Of a stretch of 64,000 nt of DNA, positions 24,790-45,547 are shown piece by piece; within the stretch, counting starts at the first letter, position 1, and each line of letters begins with the position of its first letter. A program made the translations under genes and the position numbers. The notes beneath the pieces were generated by a model that did no database searches, was not told the origin of the DNA, and saw only the letters and a program-made list of their open reading frames with translations. The stretch is from Escherichia coli (lineage in GTDB: Bacteria; Pseudomonadota; Gammaproteobacteria; Enterobacterales; Enterobacteriaceae): assembly GCF_051903065.1 (NCBI RefSeq), contig NZ_CP178438.1. The stretch is one strand, 5' to 3'.

Positions 24790-27285
24790 TTACTGGCAAA
24801 TATAATTTCTACTTTCATCAATCTCTTTACCGAAGGTGATTGTGCATGAAAGTCCTTGTTGCTTATTAATTGCCACATTAACCGATGGCGGTACTTCATT
24901 GGTGCGAATAAATAACTGACTTCCCTGGCCGACAACGCCAATATTATGACCGTGGATATCATTGACTTCATAACCAAACGTTAATGGTTGCCCATCCGCT
25001 CTTAACGCTTTTATAAACCAGGGCTTGCGCTGATCGGTATCAAAATTAACCAGTACAACCGCGCCGCGATAAGGGGCGGCAATTTTCCGGTTGCCACGTA
25101 ATTCTGCTTCGCTATCGCTTTGCGACACATCCAGCATCAGGTGATTTTCCCGATAAGGTGTCATTCCGTCGTATACCACCACTCCATTACGGTTTGTTGT
25201 GCGATATTTTTGCCCATTGACATAGGCATCTTTAATTCCTGGCGCATTCATCACAGCAAACGTTTCGGAAAGACGGTTCGCCAGATTAACGCCACCCGAC
25301 CAGGCGACAATGCCCCCTGAAACACTGGCTCCAGCCTGTCGATAAGTACTCGACTGACTATAACTGCCATTCACTGTTGCCACCGGCGCGTTCCAGGTTA
25401 AATTCGCTCCAGCTGTCGTTTCATTTCCCTGATGTTGATGACTCAGGTTGACACCATAATTGAACTGTTCCCGACTCCCTACTGTTCCTGATAATCCCGT
25501 ATTATTTGAGGCAAACCCCTGATCATCAAACGTCGTTGAGTTAGACATATATATTTGCCGACGAGGCGTCGAAACGTCATCACCCCAATCAAAGGGAATC
25601 GATATAAAAATATTAAAACGTTTCTCTTCATGATGATTCTCGTCATAAGCCTGGCTTGCCGCGAGGGTATAGCTTATCCGTCGCAGGTTGTTGGAATAAC
25701 TCAACTGATAATCCTTACTACTGCCGCTACGCCCCCAGTAATCTCGCCATAACGTACTTAATGACACAGAACCCCAACCTTCTGGCAATGACTGGCTCAT
25801 ATTGGCGGAAAAGCTATTTTTGCGACCAAAATCATTCTGGTAATAATCGGCAATGTCATAGACATCGTTTTCATTACGGCGATAATTATCTTTATTGTTT
25901 GCCCAAACGTGATCATTAAATGTCCGGTAATCACGCGACGAATAACGCCAGGCCGCCAGACCAAAACGCGTCGACGTTTGGCTCACAAATTTGTTGTAGG
26001 CAATTTGATAACTTTGCCCGTCAAACACATCGCCGTTGTCTTGTTTACTATGCGACTTCGTGGCATCGACGGAAATGGCACCAATGCGTGTATTCCAGCC
26101 AGTCCCCAAAGTGAACGCGTAATAATTATTCGCGACCATCGAGCCACCATACAGCGTCAATAAGTTATTAAAACCACACTGATAACCCGCCTGGACAAAA
26201 TCACTTTGTTTGCTCGCCCCTTCAATATGGCTACGACCCGCCGCAAAATCATATTTCGACACGCCGGGTTGCAGCATATTTGGCACGGCTGCATAAGGCA
26301 CCAGATAGGTGGTTACCGAACCGTCCGCCTCTTTCACGCTGACATCAAGATCTGCTCCACCACCGGCCAACTGCAAATCTGTAATCGCAAACGGGCCAGG
26401 AGGAACCTCTTTCTGATAAACCACAAAACCATTCTGTTCAATAGTTATCAGCGCGTTACTCTGAGCAATCCCCTGCACCCGTGGCGTAAAATTTTGTTTC
26501 GAGTTAGGCAACATCTGCATATCACGAAACAACCGCACACCTCTGAAGCGAACAGAATCAAAAATATCGCTTGATGTGTACATATCACCCACGCGAAGCG
26601 TGCCGAGAAGTTGGGCAAATCCACGTTCCAGATACAGGGTATTGCTTTTCCACACCCCTGGATTGTTATTTGTTTTACTGAAACTGGCATCAGAATGCAG
26701 TTGCCACCCCAGTAAATTTAACCCGCTGTTAAAACGTACATATGTACTCTTACTATTACCCGACGCTTTATAGTCACTGTAATACTGACTCACATAATAA
26801 GAGGTATAAAACGCATTAATACCCCGCTCCCAGTTTTCCGGTGGAACATAGCCACTTTCCAGTTCTTCCACCCAGGCCTGCGGGACACTGAAATCGAGAC
26901 GAAAGACCCCGATATCCCAGGTATAGCTCCCACCCTGAACAAGTTGCTCAAATGTTAAACATTGCTTTCCACTGGCGAAGTTATCGGTGTTAATGCCTAA
27001 CCGCTTGATAATTTCCCTTGATAAACAAGTTTCTTGCGGGTTGTCTTTAACAATGATCTCATATTTCCCGCGCCATTTCTTATTGACATAAATATCGATG
27101 TCATACTGCCCCGGTAAGGGTTGATTATCATCAAGACGAATATTTGCAACCTGCTGGTCTTTCATTCCACCTATCATAAAATGGGTATCAAAGGTTTCTT
27201 CAGCTGCATAAGCTTCAATGCCGAGCAATAACGCTACGATTGCTGATGCAAGTGGGGTCATTCTCAACATAGGCAGCTCCTGCAA
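24790..27285 (-). CDS. yehB: Fimbrial outer-membrane usher YehB
   Basis: ~830 aa usher-type protein; exact start codon not resolved. Confidence 0.85.
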   Translation of the reverse strand: MQELPMLRMTPLASAIVALLLGIEAYAAEETFDTHFMIGGMKDQQVANIRLDDNQPLPGQYDIDIYVNKKWRGKYEIIVKDNPQETCLSREIIKRLGINTDNFASGKQCLTFEQLVQGGSYTWDIGVFRLDFSVPQAWVEELESGYVPPENWERGINAFYTSYYVSQYYSDYKASGNSKSTYVRFNSGLNLLGWQLHSDASFSKTNNNPGVWKSNTLYLERGFAQLLGTLRVGDMYTSSDIFDSVRFRGVRLFRDMQMLPNSKQNFTPRVQGIAQSNALITIEQNGFVVYQKEVPPGPFAITDLQLAGGGADLDVSVKEADGSVTTYLVPYAAVPNMLQPGVSKYDFAAGRSHIEGASKQSDFVQAGYQCGFNNLLTLYGGSMVANNYYAFTLGTGWNTRIGAISVDATKSHSKQDNGDVFDGQSYQIAYNKFVSQTSTRFGLAAWRYSSRDYRTFNDHVWANNKDNYRRNENDVYDIADYYQNDFGRKNSFSANMSQSLPEGWGSVSLSTLWRDYWGRSGSSKDYQLSYSNNLRRISYTLAASQAYDENHHEEKRFNIFISIPFDWGDDVSTPRRQIYMSNSTTFDDQGFASNNTGLSGTVGSREQFNYGVNLSHQHQGNETTAGANLTWNAPVATVNGSYSQSSTYRQAGASVSGGIVAWSGGVNLANRLSETFAVMNAPGIKDAYVNGQKYRTTNRNGVVVYDGMTPYRENHLMLDVSQSDSEAELRGNRKIAAPYRGAVVLVNFDTDQRKPWFIKALRADGQPLTFGYEVNDIHGHNIGVVGQGSQLFIRTNEVPPSVNVAINKQQGLSCTITFGKEIDESRNYICQ

Positions 27286-30528: not shown

Positions 30529-30659
30529 CCCGACTCCTTTTTTGTATAGATAAACCATCAGCTGATAGTTTACCTGAAGAATATAGAGAAGTACTTACTT
30601 AACATTTTCCCATTTGGTACTATCTAACCCCTTTTCACTATTAAGAAGTAATGCCTACT

Positions 30660-32693
30660 ATGACTCAAGTCGCGAAGAAAATTCTGGTGACGTGCGCACT
30701 GCCGTACGCTAACGGCTCAATCCACCTCGGCCATATGCTGGAGCACATCCAGGCTGATGTCTGGGTCCGTTACCAGCGAATGCGCGGCCACGAGGTCAAC
30801 TTCATCTGCGCCGACGATGCCCACGGTACACCGATCATGCTGAAAGCTCAGCAGCTTGGTATCACCCCGGAGCAGATGATTGGCGAAATGAGTCAGGAGC
30901 ATCAGACTGATTTCGCAGGCTTTAACATCAGCTATGACAACTATCACTCGACGCACAGCGAAGAGAACCGCCAGTTGTCTGAGCTTATCTATACTCGCCT
31001 GAAAGAAAACGGTTTTATTAAAAACCGCACCATCTCTCAGCTGTACGATCCGGAAAAAGGCATGTTCCTGCCGGACCGTTTTGTGAAAGGCACCTGCCCG
31101 AAATGTAAATCCCCGGATCAATACGGCGATAACTGCGAAGTCTGCGGCGCGACCTACAGCCCGACTGAACTGATCGAGCCGAAATCGGTGGTTTCTGGCG
31201 CTACCCCGGTAATGCGTGATTCTGAACACTTCTTCTTTGATCTGCCCTCTTTCAGCGAAATGTTGCAGGCATGGACCCGCAGCGGTGCGTTGCAGGAGCA
31301 GGTGGCAAATAAAATGCAGGAGTGGTTTGAATCCGGTCTGCAACAGTGGGATATCTCCCGCGACGCGCCGTACTTCGGTTTTGAAATTCCGAACGCGCCG
31401 GGTAAATATTTCTACGTCTGGCTGGATGCGCCGATTGGCTATATGGGTTCTTTCAAGAATCTGTGCGACAAGCGCGGCGACAGCGTAAGCTTCGATGAAT
31501 ACTGGAAGAAAGACTCCACCGCCGAGCTGTACCACTTCATCGGTAAAGATATTGTTTACTTCCACAGTCTGTTCTGGCCTGCAATGCTGGAAGGCAGCAA
31601 CTTCCGCAAGCCGACCAACTTGTTTGTTCACGGCTATGTGACAGTGAACGGTGCGAAGATGTCCAAGTCTCGCGGCACCTTTATTAAAGCCAGCACCTGG
31701 CTGAATCATTTTGACGCCGACAGCCTGCGTTACTACTACACTGCGAAACTCTCTTCGCGCATTGATGATATCGATCTCAACCTGGAAGATTTCGTTCAGC
31801 GCGTGAATGCCGATATCGTTAACAAAGTGGTTAACCTGGCCTCTCGTAATGCGGGCTTTATCAACAAGCGTTTTGACGGCGTGCTGGCAAGCGAACTGGC
31901 TGACCCGCAGTTGTACAAAACCTTCACTGATGCCGCTGAAGTGATTGGTGAAGCGTGGGAAAGCCGCGAATTTGGTAAAGCAGTGCGCGAAATCATGGCG
32001 CTGGCTGATCTGGCTAACCGCTATGTCGATGAACAGGCTCCGTGGGTGGTGGCGAAACAGGAAGGCCGCGATGCCGACCTGCAGGCAATTTGCTCAATGG
32101 GCATAAACCTGTTCCGCGTGCTGATGACTTACCTGAAGCCGGTACTGCCGAAACTGACCGAGCGCGCAGAAGCATTCCTTAATACGGAACTGACCTGGGA
32201 TGGTATCCAGCAACCGCTGCTGGGCCATAAAGTGAATCCGTTCAAGGCGCTGTATAACCGCATAGATATGAAGCAGGTTGAAGCACTGGTGGAAGCGTCT
32301 AAAGAAGAAGTGAAAGCAGCTGCCGCGCCGGTAACTGGCCCGCTGGCAGATGATCCGATTCAGGAAACCATCACCTTTGACGACTTCGCTAAAGTTGACC
32401 TGCGCGTGGCGCTGATTGAAAACGCAGAGTTTGTTGAAGGTTCTGACAAACTGCTGCGCCTGACGCTGGATCTCGGCGGTGAAAAACGCAATGTCTTCTC
32501 TGGCATTCGTTCTGCTTACCCGGATCCGCAGGTACTGATTGGTCGTCACACCATTATGGTGGCTAACCTGGCACCACGTAAAATGCGCTTCGGTATCTCT
32601 GAAGGCATGGTGATGGCTGCCGGTCCTGGCGGGAAAGATATTTTCCTGCTAAGCCCGGATGCCGGTGCTAAACCGGGTCATCAGGTGAAATAA
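30660..32693 (+). CDS. metG: Methionyl-tRNA synthetase
   Basis: 677 aa from [14 protein letters not shown] motif (GSIHLGH), KMSKS, zinc knuckle (CPKC...CEVC). Confidence 0.95.
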
Positions 32694-32702
32694 TCCCCCT
32701 TC

Positions 32703-32734
32703 AAGGCGCTGCATCGACAGCGCCTTTTCTTTAT
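32703..32734 (+). terminator. Rho-independent terminator of metG
   Basis: aaggcgctgcatcgacagcgcctt followed by ttctttat. Confidence 0.6.
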
Positions 32735-32833: not shown

Positions 32834-35800
32834 ATGAAGAGTTATATCTATCAGGACGAAAAATCACATAAATTCTGGGCGGTGGAGCAGCAGGGAAACG
32901 AGTTGCATATCAGCTGGGGAAAAGTTGGTACCCAAGGGCAAAGCCAGGTAAAAAATTTTGCTGATGTTGCAGCAGCGGAAAAAGCGAAACTGAAGCTTAT
33001 CGCGGAGAAAACGAAAAAAGGCTATGTGGAAAATGCTTCAGCAAACGTGCATATCCCCCCCATTACCAAAGCCACTCCTGAAGTTGAAACTTCCCCTGAG
33101 AGTAAAAACCAACGCCCCTGGCTGGCTGATGATGCGGTCATTCGGCTAACTGACGATATTAATCGATTTGCTTTTCCTCATCGCTCTCGCCCCAGAGAGA
33201 TCAATTATCTGCACAAAGATGGTCAAATATGGCAGCTCATCGCGAATAACACCAGAGCATATGATCCCGCCAACAATTACCGTTCTTATCCAGAAAACTG
33301 GCAGCAGGCTTTTGCTGAGTTACAAATGCGAGTTCAGGGTAATCAACAGACAGGGAGTGTGCAATCTGATGCAGCATTGCTCTGGAGTTTCTGGAACTCT
33401 TACTCTGCAGATGAACTGGTCGATGACTTAGTCATTCGCTGTGGTCTGGAAAGTGCCGTTGAAATTGCCCTTCTCGCTCTTCAACTTAGATATAAACCAG
33501 TAAAAGCCGACGTCACCACCATCATTCCCCCTGATCTCAAAGCAGAATCGCTACCGAACTGGCATCAACGTCTATGTCATCATCTTTCACTCGCTTCAGA
33601 AGATGAGTGGCAACGCTGTGTAGATAAGGTACTCGCGGCTATTCCCTCGCTATCCCCAGCACGGCAACCTTTTGCGGCGTTACTGATCCCTGAACGCCCG
33701 GATATCGCCAATGCTATGGCGCTACATTATGCAGATCAAAACGTTCCGGCGATGACCTGGTTAAGTATGATGGTAAGCGATGATGTTGCCCTGGCCATCC
33801 AGGAAAAATATGGTTTCCCACCGCTATATAATGATTTCCGCAAATATCTGGCTACGTTACTGGCAAATAATGGAATGCGTGGTGTAAGCCGGATTCTTCT
33901 CAAGCTACCTGTCGACTATCCCGTAAAATACACGGACCTTTTCACTCACATACACGCCAATGCTGAAAATCTTGTCAAATGGCTATGGAAAACGAATCAC
34001 CCGGATGCGATTCAAATTCTGATCCTCGGTGTAAATGGCAAGAAAAAGCACCTGGAATACTTAAGCAAAGCCTGCCAAAAACATCCCGCTGCGGCTATTG
34101 CCGCTTATGCTACTTTGCTGGCAATACATGAAAATAATGAGTGGCGTAAAGCGCTTGTCAAACTGATTACCGCCACGCCAGAGTTAGTATGCGAGGTCAT
34201 TCCCTGGGTTAATGCTAAGGCGGCAGGCATCTTATCTGAATGTCGTCCGCTGCCAATAGCTGAAGAATGTGAATATGCCACTGTGGATATGTTGCCGGAG
34301 CTGCTGGTCGCTCCACCGTGGGTAATAAATAAGAAAAAGAATGTCATACCCGTATTTGATTTACCGGTACTTCCCATTCCTGCCGTCACGGATATCACAC
34401 CAGGAATTACAGAGTTAATCAGTCATACTGACATATCCAGATTCAGTGAAATCGCGCAATATCAGGCATCACAGCAAACCTTATTTACCGACCTGCCACT
34501 AATTGAAAAAGAAAGCTGGGAGACATCTTTCATTCCTTTTACACCAGAACAACAAATTCTTTGGCAATTAGGTTTTAATGAATGGCTGCATTGCGAAAAT
34601 GACTTACATGAAAAAAAATATATACCGCAAAGCGCTGTTGATGCCTTGTTGCGCTTTGATTTTTCAGCACTAAAAGCTGAGTTTGCGAAATATCACAACA
34701 ATGCCAACAAAAGCTGGAATCTATCTGCGCTTTGTTACTTACCGGGACAACAGGCGATCTCATTTCTCAACCAAATAATCATTGAGGAGCGATATTCAGG
34801 TGAGAAAGAGATTCTGGCGGTTTTTGGTAGTACGGCCATTCCTGCGTTTATGACCTGCTTGCAACGAGATCATCAACGCCTGTGGATATTCACCCTTTTT
34901 ATTGGAGCCAGTGAACTAGCCTTACCAATGGCGCAGCGGTTACAGAAAAAAATAGCTTACAAGGATGCCGTTAATTGGCTGGCAAATAACCCGCGCCATG
35001 CCGCCGCCGGGCTACTGCCTTTGGCGCTGGGCAAACCGTGCCAAAATCGGGAATATGCCCGCCAGGCACTCCTCCTGCTAGTGAAATTAAACCAGCGAGA
35101 AACGATTGAGGAAATCGCCCAAGGATATAATCAACCTGATGTTTTAGCTGCGCTGGCAACATTATTTGATAGCGACCCACTGGAAGAATATCCTGCAAAA
35201 ATCGCCCCACTGCCCGGCTTTTATCAGTTCCCCTTATGGCGCAGACCTCGGCTTAAAAGTAACAACCTGCCTCTGCCAGATGACGCTATGCGCCACCTCG
35301 GCACAATGTTGAGCTTTCCACGCGACATTACCTCCTACGCTGGGCTGGCGATCATCAAAGAGACCTTCACCCGCGAATCACTGGCTGACTTTGGCTGGGA
35401 TCTCTACACGGCATGGACAGAAGCAGGCGCACCCGCAAAAGAGAACTGGGCATTTACCTCGCTGGGGATTCTAGGCAATGACGACACCGCGCGTAAACTA
35501 ACCCCGCTCATCCGCGCCTGGCCGGGTGAATCCCAGCATAAACGCGCGGTTTACGGGCTGGATGTGTTAGCCAGTATCGGTAGCGACATTGCGCTTATGT
35601 TGCTTAATGGCATTGCGCAAAAGATTAAATTCGTTGCATTACAGGAATATGCCAGCGACAGAATCAATATGGTCGCCGAAAATCGCGGACTGACAATGGC
35701 CGAACTGGAAGATCGCCTGGCACCGGATTTAGGGCTTGATAGCAGTGGCTCGCTAATATACTGGATTTCGGCCCCCGCAAATTCACCGTTGGTTTTGACG

Positions 35801-36636
35801 AAACCTTAAAACCTGTAGTGTGCGATGCAAACGGCAAAGTCCTGAAAGATTTACCTAAGACAAACCAGAGCGATGATAAAACACTGGCAACTGACGCAGT
35901 TAATCTCTTCAAACAGTTGAAAAAAGATGTTCGTGCTATCGCCAGCCAGCAAATTACCCGTCTGGAACAGGCTATGTGCCAGCGCAGACGCTGGACGGCA
36001 GAGCAGTTCCGCCTGTTTCTGGTGGAGCATCCGCTGGTACGTCACTTAACCCGACGGCTGTTATGGGGGGTTTATAACGATGAAAACGCCCTTATCATCT
36101 GTTTTCGCGTGGCAGAAGACAGCACTTACAGCGATGCGCAGGATGAGTTATTCACGCTGCCAGCAGGAAACATCGGTATACCGCATGTGCTGGAAATCCC
36201 CCCTGAATCCGCCGCTGCATTCAGGCAAATTTACGTTGATTACGAACTGCTTCCCCCTTTCCAACAGCTCGAACGTGGTAGTTACCACCTTGCTGATAAC
36301 GAACGTAATGTCCATGAATTGTCACGCTGGAACGGACGTCTCTGCCAGGCCGGACGCATTGTCGGGCTGGAACGCAGAGGCTGGCAACGTCTGGAAGAAA
36401 GCGGCAGCGTCTATGCGATGCGCAAATCTACCCCTTATGGTGCTCTCGAACTTGAAACAGAACCTTTTTCATTAATTTATGGCGAAACGGGGTATAGCGA
36501 CCTGCTGCCTGTCGAAAGCGTAAAAATCACCGCCCCTTATGATCGCTATGGTAAACAATCCTCACCCACTTTCTCCGTGCTCGACGACATCACCGCCAGC
36601 GAGCTGATTAACGACATTGAATCACTGTTTGATTAA
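32834..36636 (+). pseudogene. Giant WGR-domain / DUF4132-family protein (molR/yehH-like), disrupted by a frameshift near 35757
   Basis: ORFs 32834..35809 (991 aa) and 35818..36636 (272 aa) are in different frames; joined they are colinear with the intact 1249-aa paralog downstream; break is at ctaatatactggat. Confidence 0.75.
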
Positions 36637-36648
36637 AAGGATTTAACA

Positions 36649-39600
36649 ATGAAAACCTATATTTATCAGGACGAAAAATCACATAAATTCTGGGCGGTGG
36701 AGCAGCAGAGAAACGAGCTGCATATCAACTGGGGCAAAGTCGGCACTAACGGGCAAAGTCAGGTAAAAAGCTTTGCTGATGCTGCGGCGGCAGAAAAAGC
36801 GGAACTGAAGCTGATTGCGGAGAAGGTGAAGAAGGGGTATGTGGAAGAATTATCTTCACCATCCCAACCCGCAATCAAAATAGAAACGATCGAAGTAGAT
36901 ACAGCTGACGTGGCAGAAACCAAAGTCGTATTTGACCAAAGTATGGTTGTTGAACCTGCTGAGACACCATGCCCGTGGCTGACAGATGATTCCACTATCC
37001 ATCTATCGGAGAAAAAGTCTCAGGGGGCCTTACCTTCCCGACGTTTTCCTGGGGATGCTGTAAGCGAACCACAAGACAGCCTCCTTATGAATTTAGGTCA
37101 GGATATTCATAATCTATCAGGAAAATTAACAACATACGATTTCAGTGCATGTTCTGCTAACTGGCAGCAGAATATCAATGAAGCTCTCGCTAATGGTCCA
37201 CTTTCTCCTGCTGCGTTGGCTGTACAGGTTGTTCTGGTTTCACGTAAATTCTGGGGCGAATGCCCTGAACTCATGGATGAAATTGTCTATGTCTACGGAC
37301 TAGAATTTGCCGTGGATATGTTTATTGCCATGCAATATATCTCGTTCGATTGCACTTATCACAGAACAAGCATACACATAACTTTTCAGCCATTATTAAT
37401 CCACGCACATTGTGTTACCCCCTTTGACGTTCGACTGCGTAAACATTTGGCTCTAGCAGAAGAAACTTTGTGGCAACGCTGTGTAGATAAATTCATTACA
37501 GCTTTGCCTGATATTCCTCCCGTTCAACAACCGATGGTAGCGCTAATGCTACCGGAACGCCCGGAGATTGCAGAAGAAGTCGCACGACGGTTACTGGAGC
37601 AGAAAAATGGCCACACTGTTGAATGGCTGAAACTTGTTGTACAAGAATCTTCCTTGCTCAAAGCACTGGAATCTTATTGCGCGTACGACCTTTTTAATGA
37701 CTATTACCATGGTTGCATCTGGAATGTCACCGTTTTGCAGGAGCAAGGGATTGCCGGAATCGCTCGCTTCGCCCCCTATGCTTATGCTGATCTTTGCGGA
37801 AGTATTCTCGCAGAGATCAATCACCCACAAGCATTAATGCTACTTATACGTGTGTCTGGCAAAACTAAACGCTGCCATGAACGAATGACTACGGCTTGCG
37901 CTGCGTTCCCACACGCAGCACTGGCAGCACTGGCGGAACTTCTAGTGCAAAAAGAAGAGAATAGTTGGCGCATTATGCTAATGACGATGCTTATCTCGCA
38001 ACCGACACTAGCAGAACAGGTCATTCCCTGGCTTTCGACACCCGCAGTTGCAGTGCTGAAATCATGCCAGCAACAACTGACACAGCCCTCAAACCATGCC
38101 TGCGTCGATCTACTGCCTGCCGTATTAGTCTCACCGCCCTGGCTTTCGAAAAAGAAAAAATCTGTAATGCCGGTATTGGATTTAACGCCATTACCGTTGG
38201 AGTCATGCTGTACATTGACCGAGACGGCAGAAAAAGAGATTCATGCAAGGCATCGCTGGCACGCACATCAAATAGACATCGGCCAAAAAGAGGATATTCA
38301 GAACTACCTGGCACGTCTGGGTTTCAATCGCTGGAATAATGGCCAGTATATGAAAGCGCCTGATGCTGCTATAGAGCTCTGGCAAAGGGGAGATTATTCC
38401 GCGCTGATCAGCGAATTTAAAACCTTCTGGCACTCCTATCAACGGGAATGGCAGCTTTACATGTTAGCCGCCCTGCCTATCGAAAAGACAGCGCAGGCGT
38501 GGAATGTCCTCAGTAAAGAGCCACACGTCGGTGTCGAGTTTGTCATGACGCACCTGCAACTCACTGGGTTACAGGGTTTTATTCACTCCTTTTCACGCTA
38601 CCCGCAAGAAGCTCTGCCTGTAGCACAATATTTTGCGGCTATCGAATTAGCGCCACTGATCGCCCGTGCCTTCAACAAACTCAAAACCCTACGACAAGAC
38701 GCCCGTAGCTGGCTGCTAAAATACCCGGAACACGCCATAACCGGCCTGCTGCCTTCGGCGCTCGGCAAAGCCGGTGAAGCACAGGATAACGCTCGCGCTG
38801 CCTTACGTATGCTTACCGAAAACGGTCATCAGCCATTACTGCAAGAAATCGCCCGGCGTTATAACCAGCCGGAAGTAACCGACGCGGTGAACGCTCTGCT
38901 TGCGCTCGATCCCTTAGATAATCACCCGACAAAAATCCCCACTCTTCCGGCCTTTTATCAGCCATCGCTCTGGACGCGCCCGGTATTAAATACAAACGCC
39001 CAATCACTGCCAGATAGCGCACTCCAGCACCTCGGTGAAATGCTCCGCTTCCCTCAGGAAGAGGCCCTGTATCCGGGATTATTGCAGGTGAAAGATGCCT
39101 GTACCGCCGACTCACTGGCTGAATTTGCCTGGGATCTGTTTACCGCCTGGTTGACTGCGGGCGCACCGTCGAAAGAGAGTTGGGCGTTCACTGCGTTAGG
39201 CGTTCTTGGTAACGATGACACCGCCCGCAAACTGACGCCATTAATACGCGCCTGGCCTGGTGAATCCCAGCATAAACGCGCCACCGTTGGGTTGGATATT
39301 CTCGCCGCTATCGGTAGTGATATCGCCCTGATGCAGCTTAACGGTATTGCCCAGAAACTGAAATTCAAAGCATTACAGGAGCGGGCAAAAGAAAAAATTG
39401 CCGACATTGCCGAAAGCCGCGAACTCACGGTGGCAGAGCTTGAAGATCGGTTAGCACCGGATCTCGGTCTGGATGATAACGGTTCGTTGCTGCTGGATTT
39501 CGGCTCACGCCAGTTCACCGTCAGCTTTGATGAAACCTTAAAACCGTTTGTGCGTGATGTTTCTGGCAGCCGTCTGAAAGACCTGCCCAAACCAAACAAA

Positions 39601-40398
39601 AGCGATGATGAATCACAGGCGAACGATGCTGTTAACCGCTACAAATTGCTGAAAAAAGATGCGCGTACCGTCGCCGCCCAGCAGGTAGCAAGGCTGGAAT
39701 CCGCCATGTGCCTGCGCCGCCGCTGGTCGCCGGAAAACTTCCAGCTCTTCCTGGTTGAGCATCCGTTGGTTCGCCACTTAACCCGCCGTCTGATTTGGGG
39801 TGTTTATAGCGCCGAAAACCAGCTACTGGCTTGCTTTCGCGTAGCGGAAGATAACAGCTACAGTACCGCTGACGATGATCTTTTCACCCTGCCGGAAGGC
39901 GATATCTCTATCGGCATTCCTCACGTTCTGGAAATATCACCAACGGATGCTGCCGCCTTTGGTCAGCTTTTTGCCGACTACGAACTGCTACCACCGTTCC
40001 GTCAGCTTGACCGTAACAGTTACGCCCTGACAGAAGCCGAGCGCAACGCCAGCGAACTGACCCGCTGGGCAGGCAGAAAATGCCCGAGCGGTCGGGTCAT
40101 GGGGCTGGCGAATAAAGGCTGGATAAAGGGCACCCCGCAGGATGGAGGCTGGATCGGCTGGATGATCAAACCTCTCGGTCGCTGGTCGTTAATCATGGAA
40201 ATCGATGAAGGTTTTGCGGTAGGCATGTCGCCAGCCGAACTGAGTGCCGAGCAGCTCTTAAGCAAGCTGTGGCTATGGGAAGGCAAAGCAGAAAGCTATG
40301 GCTGGGGGAGTAATTCAACACAGGAAGCGCAGCTCTCCGTACTCGATGCCATCACCGCCAGCGAGCTGATTAACGATATTGAAGCTCTGTTTGAATAA
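36649..40398 (+). CDS. Giant WGR-domain / DUF4132-family protein (molR/yehI paralog), intact
   Basis: 1249 aa; N-terminal 66 aa near-identical to the upstream gene (MKTYIYQDEKSHKFWAVEQQ...WGKVG); 12-bp gap from upstream gene. Confidence 0.8.
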   Translation: MKTYIYQDEKSHKFWAVEQQRNELHINWGKVGTNGQSQVKSFADAAAAEKAELKLIAEKVKKGYVEELSSPSQPAIKIETIEVDTADVAETKVVFDQSMVVEPAETPCPWLTDDSTIHLSEKKSQGALPSRRFPGDAVSEPQDSLLMNLGQDIHNLSGKLTTYDFSACSANWQQNINEALANGPLSPAALAVQVVLVSRKFWGECPELMDEIVYVYGLEFAVDMFIAMQYISFDCTYHRTSIHITFQPLLIHAHCVTPFDVRLRKHLALAEETLWQRCVDKFITALPDIPPVQQPMVALMLPERPEIAEEVARRLLEQKNGHTVEWLKLVVQESSLLKALESYCAYDLFNDYYHGCIWNVTVLQEQGIAGIARFAPYAYADLCGSILAEINHPQALMLLIRVSGKTKRCHERMTTACAAFPHAALAALAELLVQKEENSWRIMLMTMLISQPTLAEQVIPWLSTPAVAVLKSCQQQLTQPSNHACVDLLPAVLVSPPWLSKKKKSVMPVLDLTPLPLESCCTLTETAEKEIHARHRWHAHQIDIGQKEDIQNYLARLGFNRWNNGQYMKAPDAAIELWQRGDYSALISEFKTFWHSYQREWQLYMLAALPIEKTAQAWNVLSKEPHVGVEFVMTHLQLTGLQGFIHSFSRYPQEALPVAQYFAAIELAPLIARAFNKLKTLRQDARSWLLKYPEHAITGLLPSALGKAGEAQDNARAALRMLTENGHQPLLQEIARRYNQPEVTDAVNALLALDPLDNHPTKIPTLPAFYQPSLWTRPVLNTNAQSLPDSALQHLGEMLRFPQEEALYPGLLQVKDACTADSLAEFAWDLFTAWLTAGAPSKESWAFTALGVLGNDDTARKLTPLIRAWPGESQHKRATVGLDILAAIGSDIALMQLNGIAQKLKFKALQERAKEKIADIAESRELTVAELEDRLAPDLGLDDNGSLLLDFGSRQFTVSFDETLKPFVRDVSGSRLKDLPKPNKSDDESQANDAVNRYKLLKKDARTVAAQQVARLESAMCLRRRWSPENFQLFLVEHPLVRHLTRRLIWGVYSAENQLLACFRVAEDNSYSTADDDLFTLPEGDISIGIPHVLEISPTDAAAFGQLFADYELLPPFRQLDRNSYALTEAERNASELTRWAGRKCPSGRVMGLANKGWIKGTPQDGGWIGWMIKPLGRWSLIMEIDEGFAVGMSPAELSAEQLLSKLWLWEGKAESYGWGSNSTQEAQLSVLDAITASELINDIEALFE

Positions 40399-40407
40399 GG
40401 AAAGAGC

Positions 40408-43400
40408 ATGGACAAGGAATTACCGTGGCTGGCGGATAACGCCCAAGTGGAACTGAAATATAAAAAAGGCAAAACACCACTCAGCCATCGCAATTGGCCG
40501 GGCGAACCGGTGCCTGTTATCACTGAAAGCCTCATCCAGACACTGGGTGATGAATTGCTACAAAAAGCAGAGAAGAAAAAAAACATTGTCTGGCGTTATG
40601 AAAATTTTTCACTGGAGTGGCAGTCCGCCATTACGCAGGCCATCAACTTGATCGGCGAACACAAACCCTCAGTCCCGGCCCGCACAATGGCGGCGCTAGC
40701 CTGTATCGCGCAAAATGACAGCCAACAGTTGCTCGACGAAATCGTCCAACAAGAGGGGCTGGAATATGCGACTGAGGTGGTGATTGCACGCCAGTTTATT
40801 GCACGGTGTTATGAAAGTGATCCTCTGGTAGTCACATTGCAGTATCAGAACGAGGACTATGGCTATGGTTATCGCTCAGAAACCTATAACGAATTCGATC
40901 TCCGACTGCGTAAACACCTCTCTCTGGCAGAGGAAAGCTGCTGGCAGCGTTGCGCCGACAAACTCATTGCCGCACTGCCAGGAATAACCAAAGTTCGCCG
41001 TCCTTTTATTGCGCTGATCCTCCCGGAAAAGCCTGAAATAGCCAATGAACTCGCCAGTCTTGAAAGCTCCCGGTCAAGTCTCCATTCAAAGGAGTGGTTA
41101 AAGGTCGTTGCTACTGATAATACGGCGGTAAAAAAACTCGAACGATACTGGGGCCTGGACGTATTTAGCGATCGCGAAGCCAGCTACATGTCACAAAAAA
41201 ACCACTTCGGCTACGCGGCCTGCGCCGCCCTTTTGCGCGAACAAGGACTGGCAGCCATTCCGCGCCTCGCGATGTATGCCCATAAAGAAGATTGCGGCAG
41301 TCTGTTGGTACAAATTAACCATCCGCAGGTCATCCACACCTTGCTACTGGTGGCTGATAAAAACAAACCCAGCCTGCAACGTGTGGCTAAATACAGTAAA
41401 AACTTCCCCCACGCGACGCTCGCGGCACTGGCAGAACTGCTGGCGTTAAAAGAACCACCAGCCCGCCCTGGTTATCCAATCATCGAAGACAAAAAGCTGC
41501 CTGCCCAGCAAAAAGCACGCGATGAATACTGGCGTACGCTGTTACAAACGCTGATGGCATCGCAGCCACAACTGGTAGAAGAGGTGATGCAGTGGTTAAG
41601 TACTCAAGCCCGGGCAGTACTGAATAGTTATTTATTGGCACCGCCCAAACCGGTTATTGATGGCACCGATAACAGCAATCTGCCTGAAATCCTCGTTTCA
41701 CCACCGTGGCGTAGTAAGAAAAAAATGACAGCTCCACGTCTTGATTTGGCACCGCTCGAATTAACCCCGCAAGTTTACTGGCAACCAGGCGAACAAGAGA
41801 GGCTTGCCTCCACTGAGTCTGCCCGTTATTTCAGCACGGAATCTCTTGCGGAACGCATGGAACAAAAAAGTGGGCGAGTTGTATTACAGGAACTGGGTTT
41901 TGGGGATGATGTATGGCTGTTTCTGAATTATATACTCCCCGGAAAACTGGATGCTGCACGCAATTCACTCATTGTTCAGTGGCATTACTACCAGGGGCGG
42001 GTTGAAGAGATCCTGAATGGCTGGAACTCCCCGGAAGCACAATTAGCAGAACAGGCGCTCCGCAGCGGTCACATAGAAGCGTTAATTAACATATGGGAAA
42101 ATGACAACTACTCACGTTATCGTCCGGAAAAGAGTGTCTGGAACCTGTATTTATTGGCACAGTTGCCGCGTGAGATGGCTTTGACCTTCTGGCTGCGTAT
42201 CAATGAGAAAAAACATCTGTTCGCGGGTGAGGACTATTTTCTCAGTATCCTCGGATTGGATGCGCTACCAGGTCTGCTGTTGGCTTTTTTACATCGTCCA
42301 AAAGAAACATTTCCGTTAATTTTAAATTTTGGCGCAACAGAACTGGCCCTGCCCGTTGCCCGCGTCTGGCACCGTTTTGCGGGCCAGCGTAATCTGGCTC
42401 GCCAGTGGATTTTACAATGGCCGGAACATACGGCTACTGCACTTATCCCTCTTGTCTTTATCAAACCCAGCGATAATAGCGAAGCCGCATTACTTGCCCT
42501 GCGTTTACTGTACGAACAGGGACATGGCGAGTTGCTGCAAACCGTGGCAAACCGCTGGCAACGCGCTGATGTATGGCCTGCCCTGGAGCAGTTGCTTAAA
42601 CAGGGTCCAATGGACATTTACCCGGCACGCATTCCAAAAGCCCCTGATTTCTGGCATCCGCAAATGTGGTCCAGGCCGCGCCTTATCACTAATAATCAAC
42701 CTGTTACCGATGACGCTCTGGAAATTATCGGCGAAATGCTGCGCTTTACCCAGGGGGGACGTTTTTATAGCGGTCTGGAACAACTGAAAACGTTTTGCCA
42801 GCCACAAACGCTGGCCGCTTTTGCCTGGGATCTCTTCACTGCGTGGCAACAAGCTGGTGCCCCCGCAAAAGACAACTGGGCATTTCTGGCGTTAAGTCTC
42901 TTTGGTGACGAAAGCACGGCTCGGGATCTGACGACACAGATCCTCGCCTGGCCACAAGAAGGCAAATCTGCCCGTGCTGTCAGCGGCCTGAACATCCTTA
43001 CCCTGATGAATAATGATATGGCGCTGATGCAGCTGCATCATATATCGCAACGGGCTAAATCCCGCCCCTTACGTGATAACGCGGCGGAATTTCTTCAGGT
43101 GGTCGCAGAAAATCGCGGGCTAAGCCAGGAAGAGCTAGCGGACAGATTAGTCCCAATCCTGGGCCTTGATGATCCGCAGGCGTTGAGTTTTGATTTTGAT
43201 CCCCGGCAGTTTACCGTTCGCTTCGATGAAAACCTCAACCCGGTTATCTTTGATCAGCAAAACGTTCGCCAGAAAAGTGTTCCCCGGTTGCGTGCCGATG
43301 ACGATCAACTGAAAGCGCCCGAGGCACTGGCCCGACTAAAAGGGCTAAAAAAAGATGCTACTCAGGTGAGCAAAAACCTGCTCCCGCGTCTTGAAGCTGC

Positions 43401-44040
43401 CCTACGTACCACCCGACGCTGGTCGCTGGCAGATTTTCATTCTCTGTTTGTTAATCATCCCTTTACCCGCCTGGTTACCCAGCGATTAATATGGGGGGGT
43501 TATCCGGCAAATGAACCGCGTCGTTTACTCAACGCCTTTCGTGTGGCCGCAGAGGGGGAGTTCTGCAATGCGCAGGATGAGCCCATTGACCTTCCTGCGG
43601 ATGCTCTGATTGGCATTGCCCACCCGTTAGAAATGACAGCAGAAATGCGCAGTGAATTTGCACAGCTTTTTGCCGATTACGAAATTATGCCGCCTTTTCG
43701 CCAGTTGTCGCGCCGCACGGTGCTGCTCACACCTGACGAGTCAACCAGTAACAGCCTGACTCGCTGGGAAGGTAAATCCGCTACCGTTGGGCAACTTATG
43801 GGAATGCGATACAAAGGCTGGGAATCAGGCTATGAGGACGCATTTGTCTATGACCTGGGTGAGTACCGGCTGGTCCTTAAGTTTTCACCCGGTTTTAACC
43901 ACTACAATGTTGATAGCAAAGCGCTAATGAGCTTCCGTTCTCTTCGAGTGTACCGTGACAATAAATCCGTCACTTTTGCCGAACTTGATGTGTTTGATTT
44001 GAGAGAGGCGTTAAGCGCACCTGACGTCATTTTCCATTAA
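40408..44040 (+). CDS. yehI: Giant DUF4132-family protein YehI (paralog lacking the N-terminal WGR module)
   Basis: 1210 aa; shares conserved C-terminal blocks with the two upstream genes (e.g. DDTARKLTPLIRAWPGESQHKRA-like, RRWS..F..FLVEHP..R); 9-bp gap from upstream gene. Confidence 0.8.
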   Translation: MDKELPWLADNAQVELKYKKGKTPLSHRNWPGEPVPVITESLIQTLGDELLQKAEKKKNIVWRYENFSLEWQSAITQAINLIGEHKPSVPARTMAALACIAQNDSQQLLDEIVQQEGLEYATEVVIARQFIARCYESDPLVVTLQYQNEDYGYGYRSETYNEFDLRLRKHLSLAEESCWQRCADKLIAALPGITKVRRPFIALILPEKPEIANELASLESSRSSLHSKEWLKVVATDNTAVKKLERYWGLDVFSDREASYMSQKNHFGYAACAALLREQGLAAIPRLAMYAHKEDCGSLLVQINHPQVIHTLLLVADKNKPSLQRVAKYSKNFPHATLAALAELLALKEPPARPGYPIIEDKKLPAQQKARDEYWRTLLQTLMASQPQLVEEVMQWLSTQARAVLNSYLLAPPKPVIDGTDNSNLPEILVSPPWRSKKKMTAPRLDLAPLELTPQVYWQPGEQERLASTESARYFSTESLAERMEQKSGRVVLQELGFGDDVWLFLNYILPGKLDAARNSLIVQWHYYQGRVEEILNGWNSPEAQLAEQALRSGHIEALINIWENDNYSRYRPEKSVWNLYLLAQLPREMALTFWLRINEKKHLFAGEDYFLSILGLDALPGLLLAFLHRPKETFPLILNFGATELALPVARVWHRFAGQRNLARQWILQWPEHTATALIPLVFIKPSDNSEAALLALRLLYEQGHGELLQTVANRWQRADVWPALEQLLKQGPMDIYPARIPKAPDFWHPQMWSRPRLITNNQPVTDDALEIIGEMLRFTQGGRFYSGLEQLKTFCQPQTLAAFAWDLFTAWQQAGAPAKDNWAFLALSLFGDESTARDLTTQILAWPQEGKSARAVSGLNILTLMNNDMALMQLHHISQRAKSRPLRDNAAEFLQVVAENRGLSQEELADRLVPILGLDDPQALSFDFDPRQFTVRFDENLNPVIFDQQNVRQKSVPRLRADDDQLKAPEALARLKGLKKDATQVSKNLLPRLEAALRTTRRWSLADFHSLFVNHPFTRLVTQRLIWGGYPANEPRRLLNAFRVAAEGEFCNAQDEPIDLPADALIGIAHPLEMTAEMRSEFAQLFADYEIMPPFRQLSRRTVLLTPDESTSNSLTRWEGKSATVGQLMGMRYKGWESGYEDAFVYDLGEYRLVLKFSPGFNHYNVDSKALMSFRSLRVYRDNKSVTFAELDVFDLREALSAPDVIFH

Positions 44041-44856: not shown

Positions 44857-44936
44857 TTGGTACGAAATGTTGCACAATCAGCAAGTTAGCGTCACTGTAG
44901 TAAATAAAAGAACCTGCCTCACCAGCAGGTTTTTTT
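44857..44936 (+). ncRNA. Orz-type antitoxin sRNA (copy 1)
   Basis: Starts after the tataat box, ends at hairpin acctgcctcaccagcaggt + T7; 5' region guugguacgaaauguugc pairs over 18 nt (one G.U) with the zor 5' UTR (plus 44693-44710); ends approximate. Confidence 0.65.
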
Positions 44937-45464: not shown

Positions 45465-45547
45465 TTGGAACACGATGTTGCACAGGCTGTGGTGTTAGGC
45501 CTGAAAATAGTAAATAAAAGAACCTGCCTCACCAGCAGGTTTTTTTA
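45465..45547 (+). ncRNA. Orz-type antitoxin sRNA (copy 2)
   Basis: guuggaacacgauguugcac complementary (one mismatch) to the copy-2 zor 5' UTR; terminator acctgcctcaccagcaggt + T-run; ends approximate. Confidence 0.65.

Follow-up and report, generated by a model that had tools for sequence, protein, structure and literature searches.

Background

The closest described counterpart of the locus considered here is molR of Escherichia coli K-12, a pseudogene that is now annotated as yehF (b2115) plus yehH (b4499) and was formerly known as molR_1/2/3. In K-12, the region downstream of metG carries the molR promoter, which is activated by BglJ-RcsB, and the gene itself is listed as 'disrupted in K12' (PMC3950696). 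Elsewhere in the species, TnMB1860 has been found inserted in the 'DUF4132 region' of ST131 sublineage L1a (PMC9334617). These two papers were the only relevant ones in a search of the literature on DUF4132, on yehF/yehH/yehI/molR, on yehL-Q and on the combination of WGR, MoxR, SWIM and vWA.

Here we present an analysis of a 64,000-nucleotide stretch of E. coli DNA, hereafter the window, which represents the apbC-metG-yeh locus, i.e. the metG/yeh region. Its first gene after metG, designated gene A, resembles K-12 molR in being a giant WGR-DUF4132 gene located directly 3' of metG, where it takes the same place in the operon after the same intergenic region of 140-141 nt, and also in being disrupted into an N-terminal ORF with the WGR domain and a remainder bearing DUF4132. 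The locus differs in the number of family genes, which is two in K-12 (the yehF/yehH pseudogene and yehI) and three in the window. The evidence assembled below makes it very probable that gene A is a recent loss-of-function frameshift pseudogene, inherited vertically in one lineage, with gene B and yehI still intact. That gene A carries a frameshift is already known, as RefSeq annotates the identical sequence in this way, and the lesion is neither novel nor surprising. Our interest lies in its exact form, its distribution and the readings that compete to explain it.

Organization of the metG-proximal array

Downstream of metG, three large tandem WGR-DUF4132 ("molR-like") genes, designated A, B and C, follow one another with gaps of only 12 and 9 nt. 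The relevant features are:

30651-32693, plus strand: metG
32703-32726, plus strand: terminator-like hairpin 3' of metG
32834-36636, plus strand: gene A, frameshifted WGR-DUF4132 pseudogene, 3803 bp, first gene after metG
32834-35809, plus strand: upstream ORF of gene A, 991 aa, consisting of 975 native residues and 16 out-of-frame residues (YWISAPANSPLVLTKP), then a stop
32855-33040, plus strand: WGR domain, residues 8-69 (Pfam PF05406, E = 1.9e-18), kept in the truncated product
35743-35809, plus strand: stretch in which both frames are open, bounded by an upstream TAG at 35740; the only place for a compensating -1/+2 shift
35755-35760, plus strand: the lesion, net +2 bases, from the alignment of six alleles and a site survey in 5,426 genomes
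35807-35809, plus strand: premature TAA stop made by the frameshift
35818-36636, plus strand: downstream ORF of gene A, 272 aa, starting at an internal GTG that is a Val codon in the intact protein
35833-36384, plus strand: DUF4132, residues 1000-1183 of the repaired protein (Pfam PF13569, E = 1.3e-49)
36649-40398, plus strand: gene B, intact 1249-aa WGR-DUF4132 paralog, 44% aa identity to A
40408-44040, plus strand: gene C, which is yehI, intact 1210-aa DUF4132 paralog, 29% aa identity to A

Terminator-like matches on the plus strand inside the array have stems of just 5-7 bp; given these weak stems and the short gaps, genes A, B and C probably constitute one operon, with its promoter in the metG-A intergenic region. 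The yehLMPQ operon, encoding a MoxR ATPase, a DUF5682 protein, a VWA protein and a zinc-finger protein, adjoins the WGR-DUF4132 paralogs.

As it stands, gene A reads as two ORFs, of 991 and 272 aa. The first-pass annotation of the window had attributed this to a frameshift, and the strings that it quoted for the end of the first ORF, the neighbouring frame and the paralog were all reproduced. The ORF at 32834-35809 ends in GSLIYWISAPANSPLVLTKP followed by the stop; in the neighbouring frame, ILDFGPRKFTVGFDETLKPVV leads on into the 272-aa ORF at 35818-36636; and the corresponding sequence of paralog B is GSLLLDFGSRQFTVSFDETLKP. When two bases are deleted from CTAATATACTGG (35753-35764), the frames rejoin as had been proposed, yielding a single 1266-aa ORF with no internal stop, and the colinearity of the two ORFs with the paralog was confirmed, the repaired protein being 44% identical to B. 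The repaired protein is moreover 97.6% identical, over its full length, to the intact RefSeq protein WP_021556966.1, which, together with the complete DUF4132 domain in the downstream ORF, excludes a chance arrangement.

The two-base lesion

To place the lesion, gene A of the window was aligned with the alleles of strains 2824, CB7286, ST131 JJ1887, O157:H7 Z1830 and PapRG-06-5, which are either intact or otherwise broken and share ~87-98% DNA identity. The two-base insertion is the sole window-specific indel in this alignment, all other gaps being common to at least one other allele, and intact alleles are exactly 2 bp shorter at the orthologous site, a comparison that the first-pass annotation had suggested. 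At that site intact alleles all read CTG-A[TC]A-CT[GT], the string being CTGATACTG (L-I-L) in intact alleles and CTAATATACTG in the window. In codons, intact alleles have GGC TCG CTG ATA CTG GAT (or ACA and/or CTT), as against GGC TCG CTA ATA TAC TGG AT in the window. The difference thus comprises an A at 35755, where all intact alleles sampled have G, followed by ATATA in place of ATA or ACA. In other words, G has changed to A at 35755, and 35756-35760 contain an additional AT/TA, with codons 974-976 affected.

These details bear on how the lesion arose. A frameshift at an (AT)n micro-repeat had been suggested; the frameshift stands, and the micro-repeat does not, as only ATA (1.5 units) was present before the event, and the adjacent G>A change has to be accommodated as well. 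The window tract measures 2.5 units. ATATA is the product of the mutation, and there is no true (AT)n microsatellite at the site. Judged from the aligned alleles, the lesion is most simply described as the tandem duplication of a dinucleotide next to a point change, for which simple slippage is a plausible mechanism. Gene conversion from paralog B or C was considered as a source of the extra bases and rejected, the DNA of the paralogs at this site being unrelated (TTGCTGCTGGAT, TTGAGTTTTGAT). The exact repaired amino acid sequence, which would represent the intact ancestor, was not found in a collection of 15 billion proteins; the G>A change may have arisen together with the insertion or in a separate step before or after it.

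Intact alleles of gene A are 3798-3810 bp long and encode 1265-1266 aa, the closest being the 3801-bp allele of strain 2824. The intact orthologs WP_021556966.1 (2824), WP_163425540.1 (PapRG-06-5) and WP_001215662.1 (ST131 JJ1887) occupy the same position, are ~87-98% identical at the DNA level, combine WGR and DUF4132 in one polypeptide and, lacking the two extra bases, have L-I-L or L-T-L at codons 974-976. At 3803 bp against 3801 bp, and with no compensating change, gene A is a frameshifted pseudogene in the NCBI PGAP sense. A 1240-aa cluster member (P0021) represents a mosaic allele with 88% identity, in which the site is intact.

The broken allele shows little sign of age. Comparisons of broken with intact alleles gave dN/dS values of 0.27-0.41, against 0.32 between intact alleles, and when dN/dS was taken separately before and after the break, the changes after it were too few to weigh (3-4 nonsynonymous and 0-1 synonymous). 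The family evolves fairly fast, as gauged from these alleles. As dN/dS of the broken allele is no higher than that of intact ones, the mark of long neutral decay is missing, which fits a recent break but does not establish loss of function.

Domains retained and lost

A Pfam scan was run on the two fragments, and the window coordinates of DUF4132 were converted from residues. The DUF4132 match is complete (model positions 1-179 of 179) and lies wholly downstream of the frameshift. The 991-aa product accordingly keeps the WGR domain and a long central region and is without DUF4132 and the C-terminus; it has also lost LDFGPRxFTVxFDExLxP, a segment conserved across the three paralogs. By the domain pair that defines the WGR-DUF4132 family (PF05406 and PF13569), gene A has the N-terminal WGR domain, and its C-terminal DUF4132 lies in another frame, outside the same polypeptide, until two bases are removed. 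Gene A is a member of the family by descent; its product is not.

Other searches added little on function. PDB entry 2ra8, a WGR domain, matches residues 2-80 of paralog B and is the sole sequence match in the PDB. Among NCBIfam models, the WGR end matches a Leptospira family at 59 bits, far below the cutoff of 1000. Against the anti-phage models of PADLOC-DB 2.0, no matches were obtained for B, C or the 272-aa ORF, and the 991-aa ORF gave a marginal match to WGR_XIII only, which is not significant (E = 0.005, 13 bits). An AlphaFold2 model of the C-terminal 345 residues, built from a 6-sequence paralog alignment, had a mean pLDDT of 45.9, too poor to use.

Distribution of the lesion

Three RefSeq complete genomes, originating from two studies, have an identical 3803-bp gene A: 23CRST027 and 23CRST031, from human faeces in Ecuador, and ECNB21-M121, from meat in China. 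PGAP annotates the identical sequence in all three as 'DUF4132 domain-containing protein, frameshifted'. Over its full 64 kb, the window differs from 23CRST031 only by 2 SNPs and by lacking the insertions of IS1 and IS903B that 23CRST031 has in its yehB usher gene; the window is a further (fourth) strain of the carrier lineage.

There are records of the exact 991-aa product on 15 contigs, and GGCTCGCTAATATACTGGATTTC was found in all eight of these that were read (three isolate and five ENA metagenome assemblies), whose contig names (k119_/k141_, NODE_..cov, scaffold) suggest that several assemblers had been used. Records of the 272-aa ORF come from 34 contigs, and five minor variants of it carry 1-2 substitutions.

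Gene A is present over at least 80% of its length in about 1629 of 5,426 complete E. coli genomes. When these 5,426 genomes were surveyed with a 101-base query centred on the lesion, 1079 matched; among the matches listed, three were 100% identical to the query (23CRST027, 23CRST031 and ECNB21-M121), and 22 other records all span 99 bases at the site. A repaired 99-base query had no exact match among the complete genomes, its best matches being one base off, which is consistent with the G>A change. The +2 lesion is private to one small E. coli lineage.

Alternative explanations

The first-pass annotation had left a choice between a genuine slip and a sequencing error. Were the real gene intact and the two extra bases artefactual, one might well see what gene A shows, a clean gene but for a single 2-base indel, and the expected form of the site under error or heterogeneity would be CTAATACTG or CTGATACTG, not CTAATATACTG. 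However, the same two bases recur in three complete genomes, which come from two studies and two countries, in eight more contigs of isolates or metagenomes with names suggestive of different assemblers, and in the window, a distinct strain; the site, moreover, is no homopolymer and has neither a Dam (GATC) nor a Dcm (CCWGG) motif. The probability of a sequencing or assembly error is vanishingly small, and the recurrence argues for a genuine, inherited mutation, with an artefact effectively excluded. A genuine shift could in principle be corrected by ribosomal or transcriptional slippage, or the AT tract could act as an on/off switch of the gene. Over 35743-35809 the two frames are both open, and a -1 shift there would give a near-native protein, and the lesion does fall within a short AT/TA run; yet a scan by eye of the 0 frame of this stretch revealed no X XXY YYZ slippery heptamer, and the orthologous alleles are single-frame and need no shift, so that the two-frame layout is not conserved. 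Gene A hence has neither mark of programmed -1 frameshifting. Nor does the site have the long variable repeat tract of a phase-variable contingency locus, the tract amounting to just 2.5 dinucleotide units (1.5 in intact alleles). Its two length states are divided by lineage, with 101 bases in the 3 carriers and 99 in the 22 others listed, and tract length is uniform across the three carrier genomes and the eight carrier contigs that were read. We regard programmed recoding or phase variation as extremely improbable.

Somewhat different evidence bears on the idea that the locus is a functional split gene, in which a 991-aa module (WGR plus central region) and a 272-aa DUF4132 module are made separately and work together. 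The break falls 25 residues before the Pfam boundary of DUF4132, so each ORF keeps a whole Pfam domain; both ORFs are predicted by gene callers; the 3' ORF has acquired no further stops in a lineage that has persisted and spread (Ecuador, China, several metagenomes); and the distance from stop to GTG is only 8 nt, which could allow termination-reinitiation. Translation of the second module would nevertheless have to begin without the usual signal, as the 21 nt upstream of GTG 35818 contain no Shine-Dalgarno pairing and the anti-SD duplex there has an energy of +0.1 kcal/mol, against -5.1, -5.4 and -6.2 kcal/mol at the starts of A, B and C. Furthermore, the split destroys the LDFGPRxFTVxFDExLxP segment, the architecture occurs in no other allele of the six-allele alignment, and other strains break family genes at unrelated places, which fits decay. 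A functional split gene is, on balance, very unlikely, and the frameshift pseudogene remains the preferred reading of gene A.

Consequences for the array

The course of events that we propose is as follows. In one lineage, CTGATACTG became CTAATATACTG at codons 974-976 of gene A, a net gain of two bases; the frame then shifts, so that translation adds 16 aberrant residues before terminating at the TAA at 35807-35809. Loss of gene A function is suggested by the lesion and the domains lost, and this loss would be tolerated because paralogs B and yehI stay intact. With no ribosome-binding site before GTG 35818, the 3' part of 272 codons is probably not translated to a useful level. The resulting ~840 nt of ribosome-free mRNA may expose gene B and yehI to Rho-dependent polarity.

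The practical implications are limited. Since the split is real biology and did not arise in assembly, pipelines that annotate a pseudogene at this place are correct. In addition, the +2 lesion cleanly marks one E. coli lineage, which has been encountered in Ecuador and China as well as in several metagenome assemblies. Finally, gene A is one more case of the metG-proximal WGR-DUF4132 array losing members, which may be of interest for future work on function.

Comparison with other disrupted arrays

The metG-proximal WGR-DUF4132 array is a recurrent site of gene loss in E. coli. In O157:H7 Z1830, gene A has an internal stop at codon 243 and gene B a frameshift; in strain 2824, gene B is interrupted and gene A is intact; and other records have IS4 and IS1 elements inside the matched stretch. 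The positions and mechanisms of these disruptions differ, and none has the +2 lesion of gene A. One could read the repeated, independent knock-outs of paralogs as the outcome of selection on a fast-evolving conflict or sensing system, in which losing single paralogs is adaptive in some lineages, as opposed to neutral decay, on the strength of their recurrence together with allele divergence (~87-98% DNA identity), mosaicism and dN/dS near 0.3; we consider this reading unlikely.

K-12 molR, the most similar case in position and outcome, is a different gene. Gene A had been termed 'molR-like', which holds as regards membership of the WGR-DUF4132 family and fails as regards orthology. K-12 yehH (molR) DNA is 93.5% identical to the 3' half of gene B over 1841 bp, whereas the identity of K-12 molR DNA to gene A is 69.6% over 975 bp plus a shared 5' 186 bp; with 93.5% to B against ~70% to A, gene A was rejected as the ortholog of K-12 molR and is instead a paralog of yehF/yehH. 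The breaks differ as well, K-12 molR being split after 274 codons and gene A after 975.

Diversity and decay of the WGR/DUF4132 array

The tandem WGR/DUF4132 paralogs (32834-44040; compared with loci L004-L009 from other E. coli records) are unusually diverse within the species. DNA identity among alleles of gene A, the first gene of the array, ranges from ~87% to 98%, whereas the protein encoded by the neighbouring apbC is identical in most of the sampled strains. The alleles are mosaic, as in the cluster member P0021, where blocks of 100% identity are interleaved with divergent blocks. Copy number also varies, with three genes in the window versus two in K-12, and disruptions of the array are frequent; in strain PapRG-06-5, gene B, the second paralog, has a length of 1010 aa. 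Directly downstream lies yehLMPQ, which encodes a MoxR-type ATPase, a DUF5682 protein, a VWA protein and a zinc-finger protein.

The small gene immediately following yehI, yehK, is annotated as frameshifted in ST131 JJ1887 (L007, 19767-20083), and this is a further instance of small-scale decay near the array.

Other lesions and insertions in the lineage

Besides gene A, gatZ, encoding a tagatose-bisphosphate aldolase subunit (~9985-11248, - strand), is broken in the window, where its sole ORF is of 334 aa (10244-11248). The matching 1264-bp stretch of the Ecuadorian genome 23CRST031 is annotated as "frameshifted". gatZ is a second pseudogene of the lineage carrying the gene A lesion, and lies within the galactitol operon. 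An insertion element is also found between fbaB and gatY, with coordinates carried over from the 23CRST031 annotation:

~12405-13753, IS1397 (IS3 family)

The fimbrial usher gene yehB is interrupted by IS1A in the close relatives 23CRST027 and 23CRST031 (L001/L011), and an additional insertion, IS903B, is present in the latter. The window has neither element there (~25173-26007), and the IS1 target site is seen as a 9-bp overlap at 25999-26007. The absence of both elements therefore makes the window a different member of the same lineage.

Direct repeats between yehK and yehL

Between yehK and yehL, the segment 44476-45584 (+ strand) contains two direct repeats of ~500 bp with 89-94% identity, each with one full-length Rfam match to the OrzO-P antitoxin sRNA:

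44863-44936, OrzO-P match in the first repeat (88.8 bits)
45471-45546, OrzO-P match in the second repeat (99.9 bits)

These repeats resemble the duplicated type I toxin-antitoxin pair zorO-orzO / zorP-orzP. In K-12 the yehK-yehL intergenic region is much shorter than that of the window.
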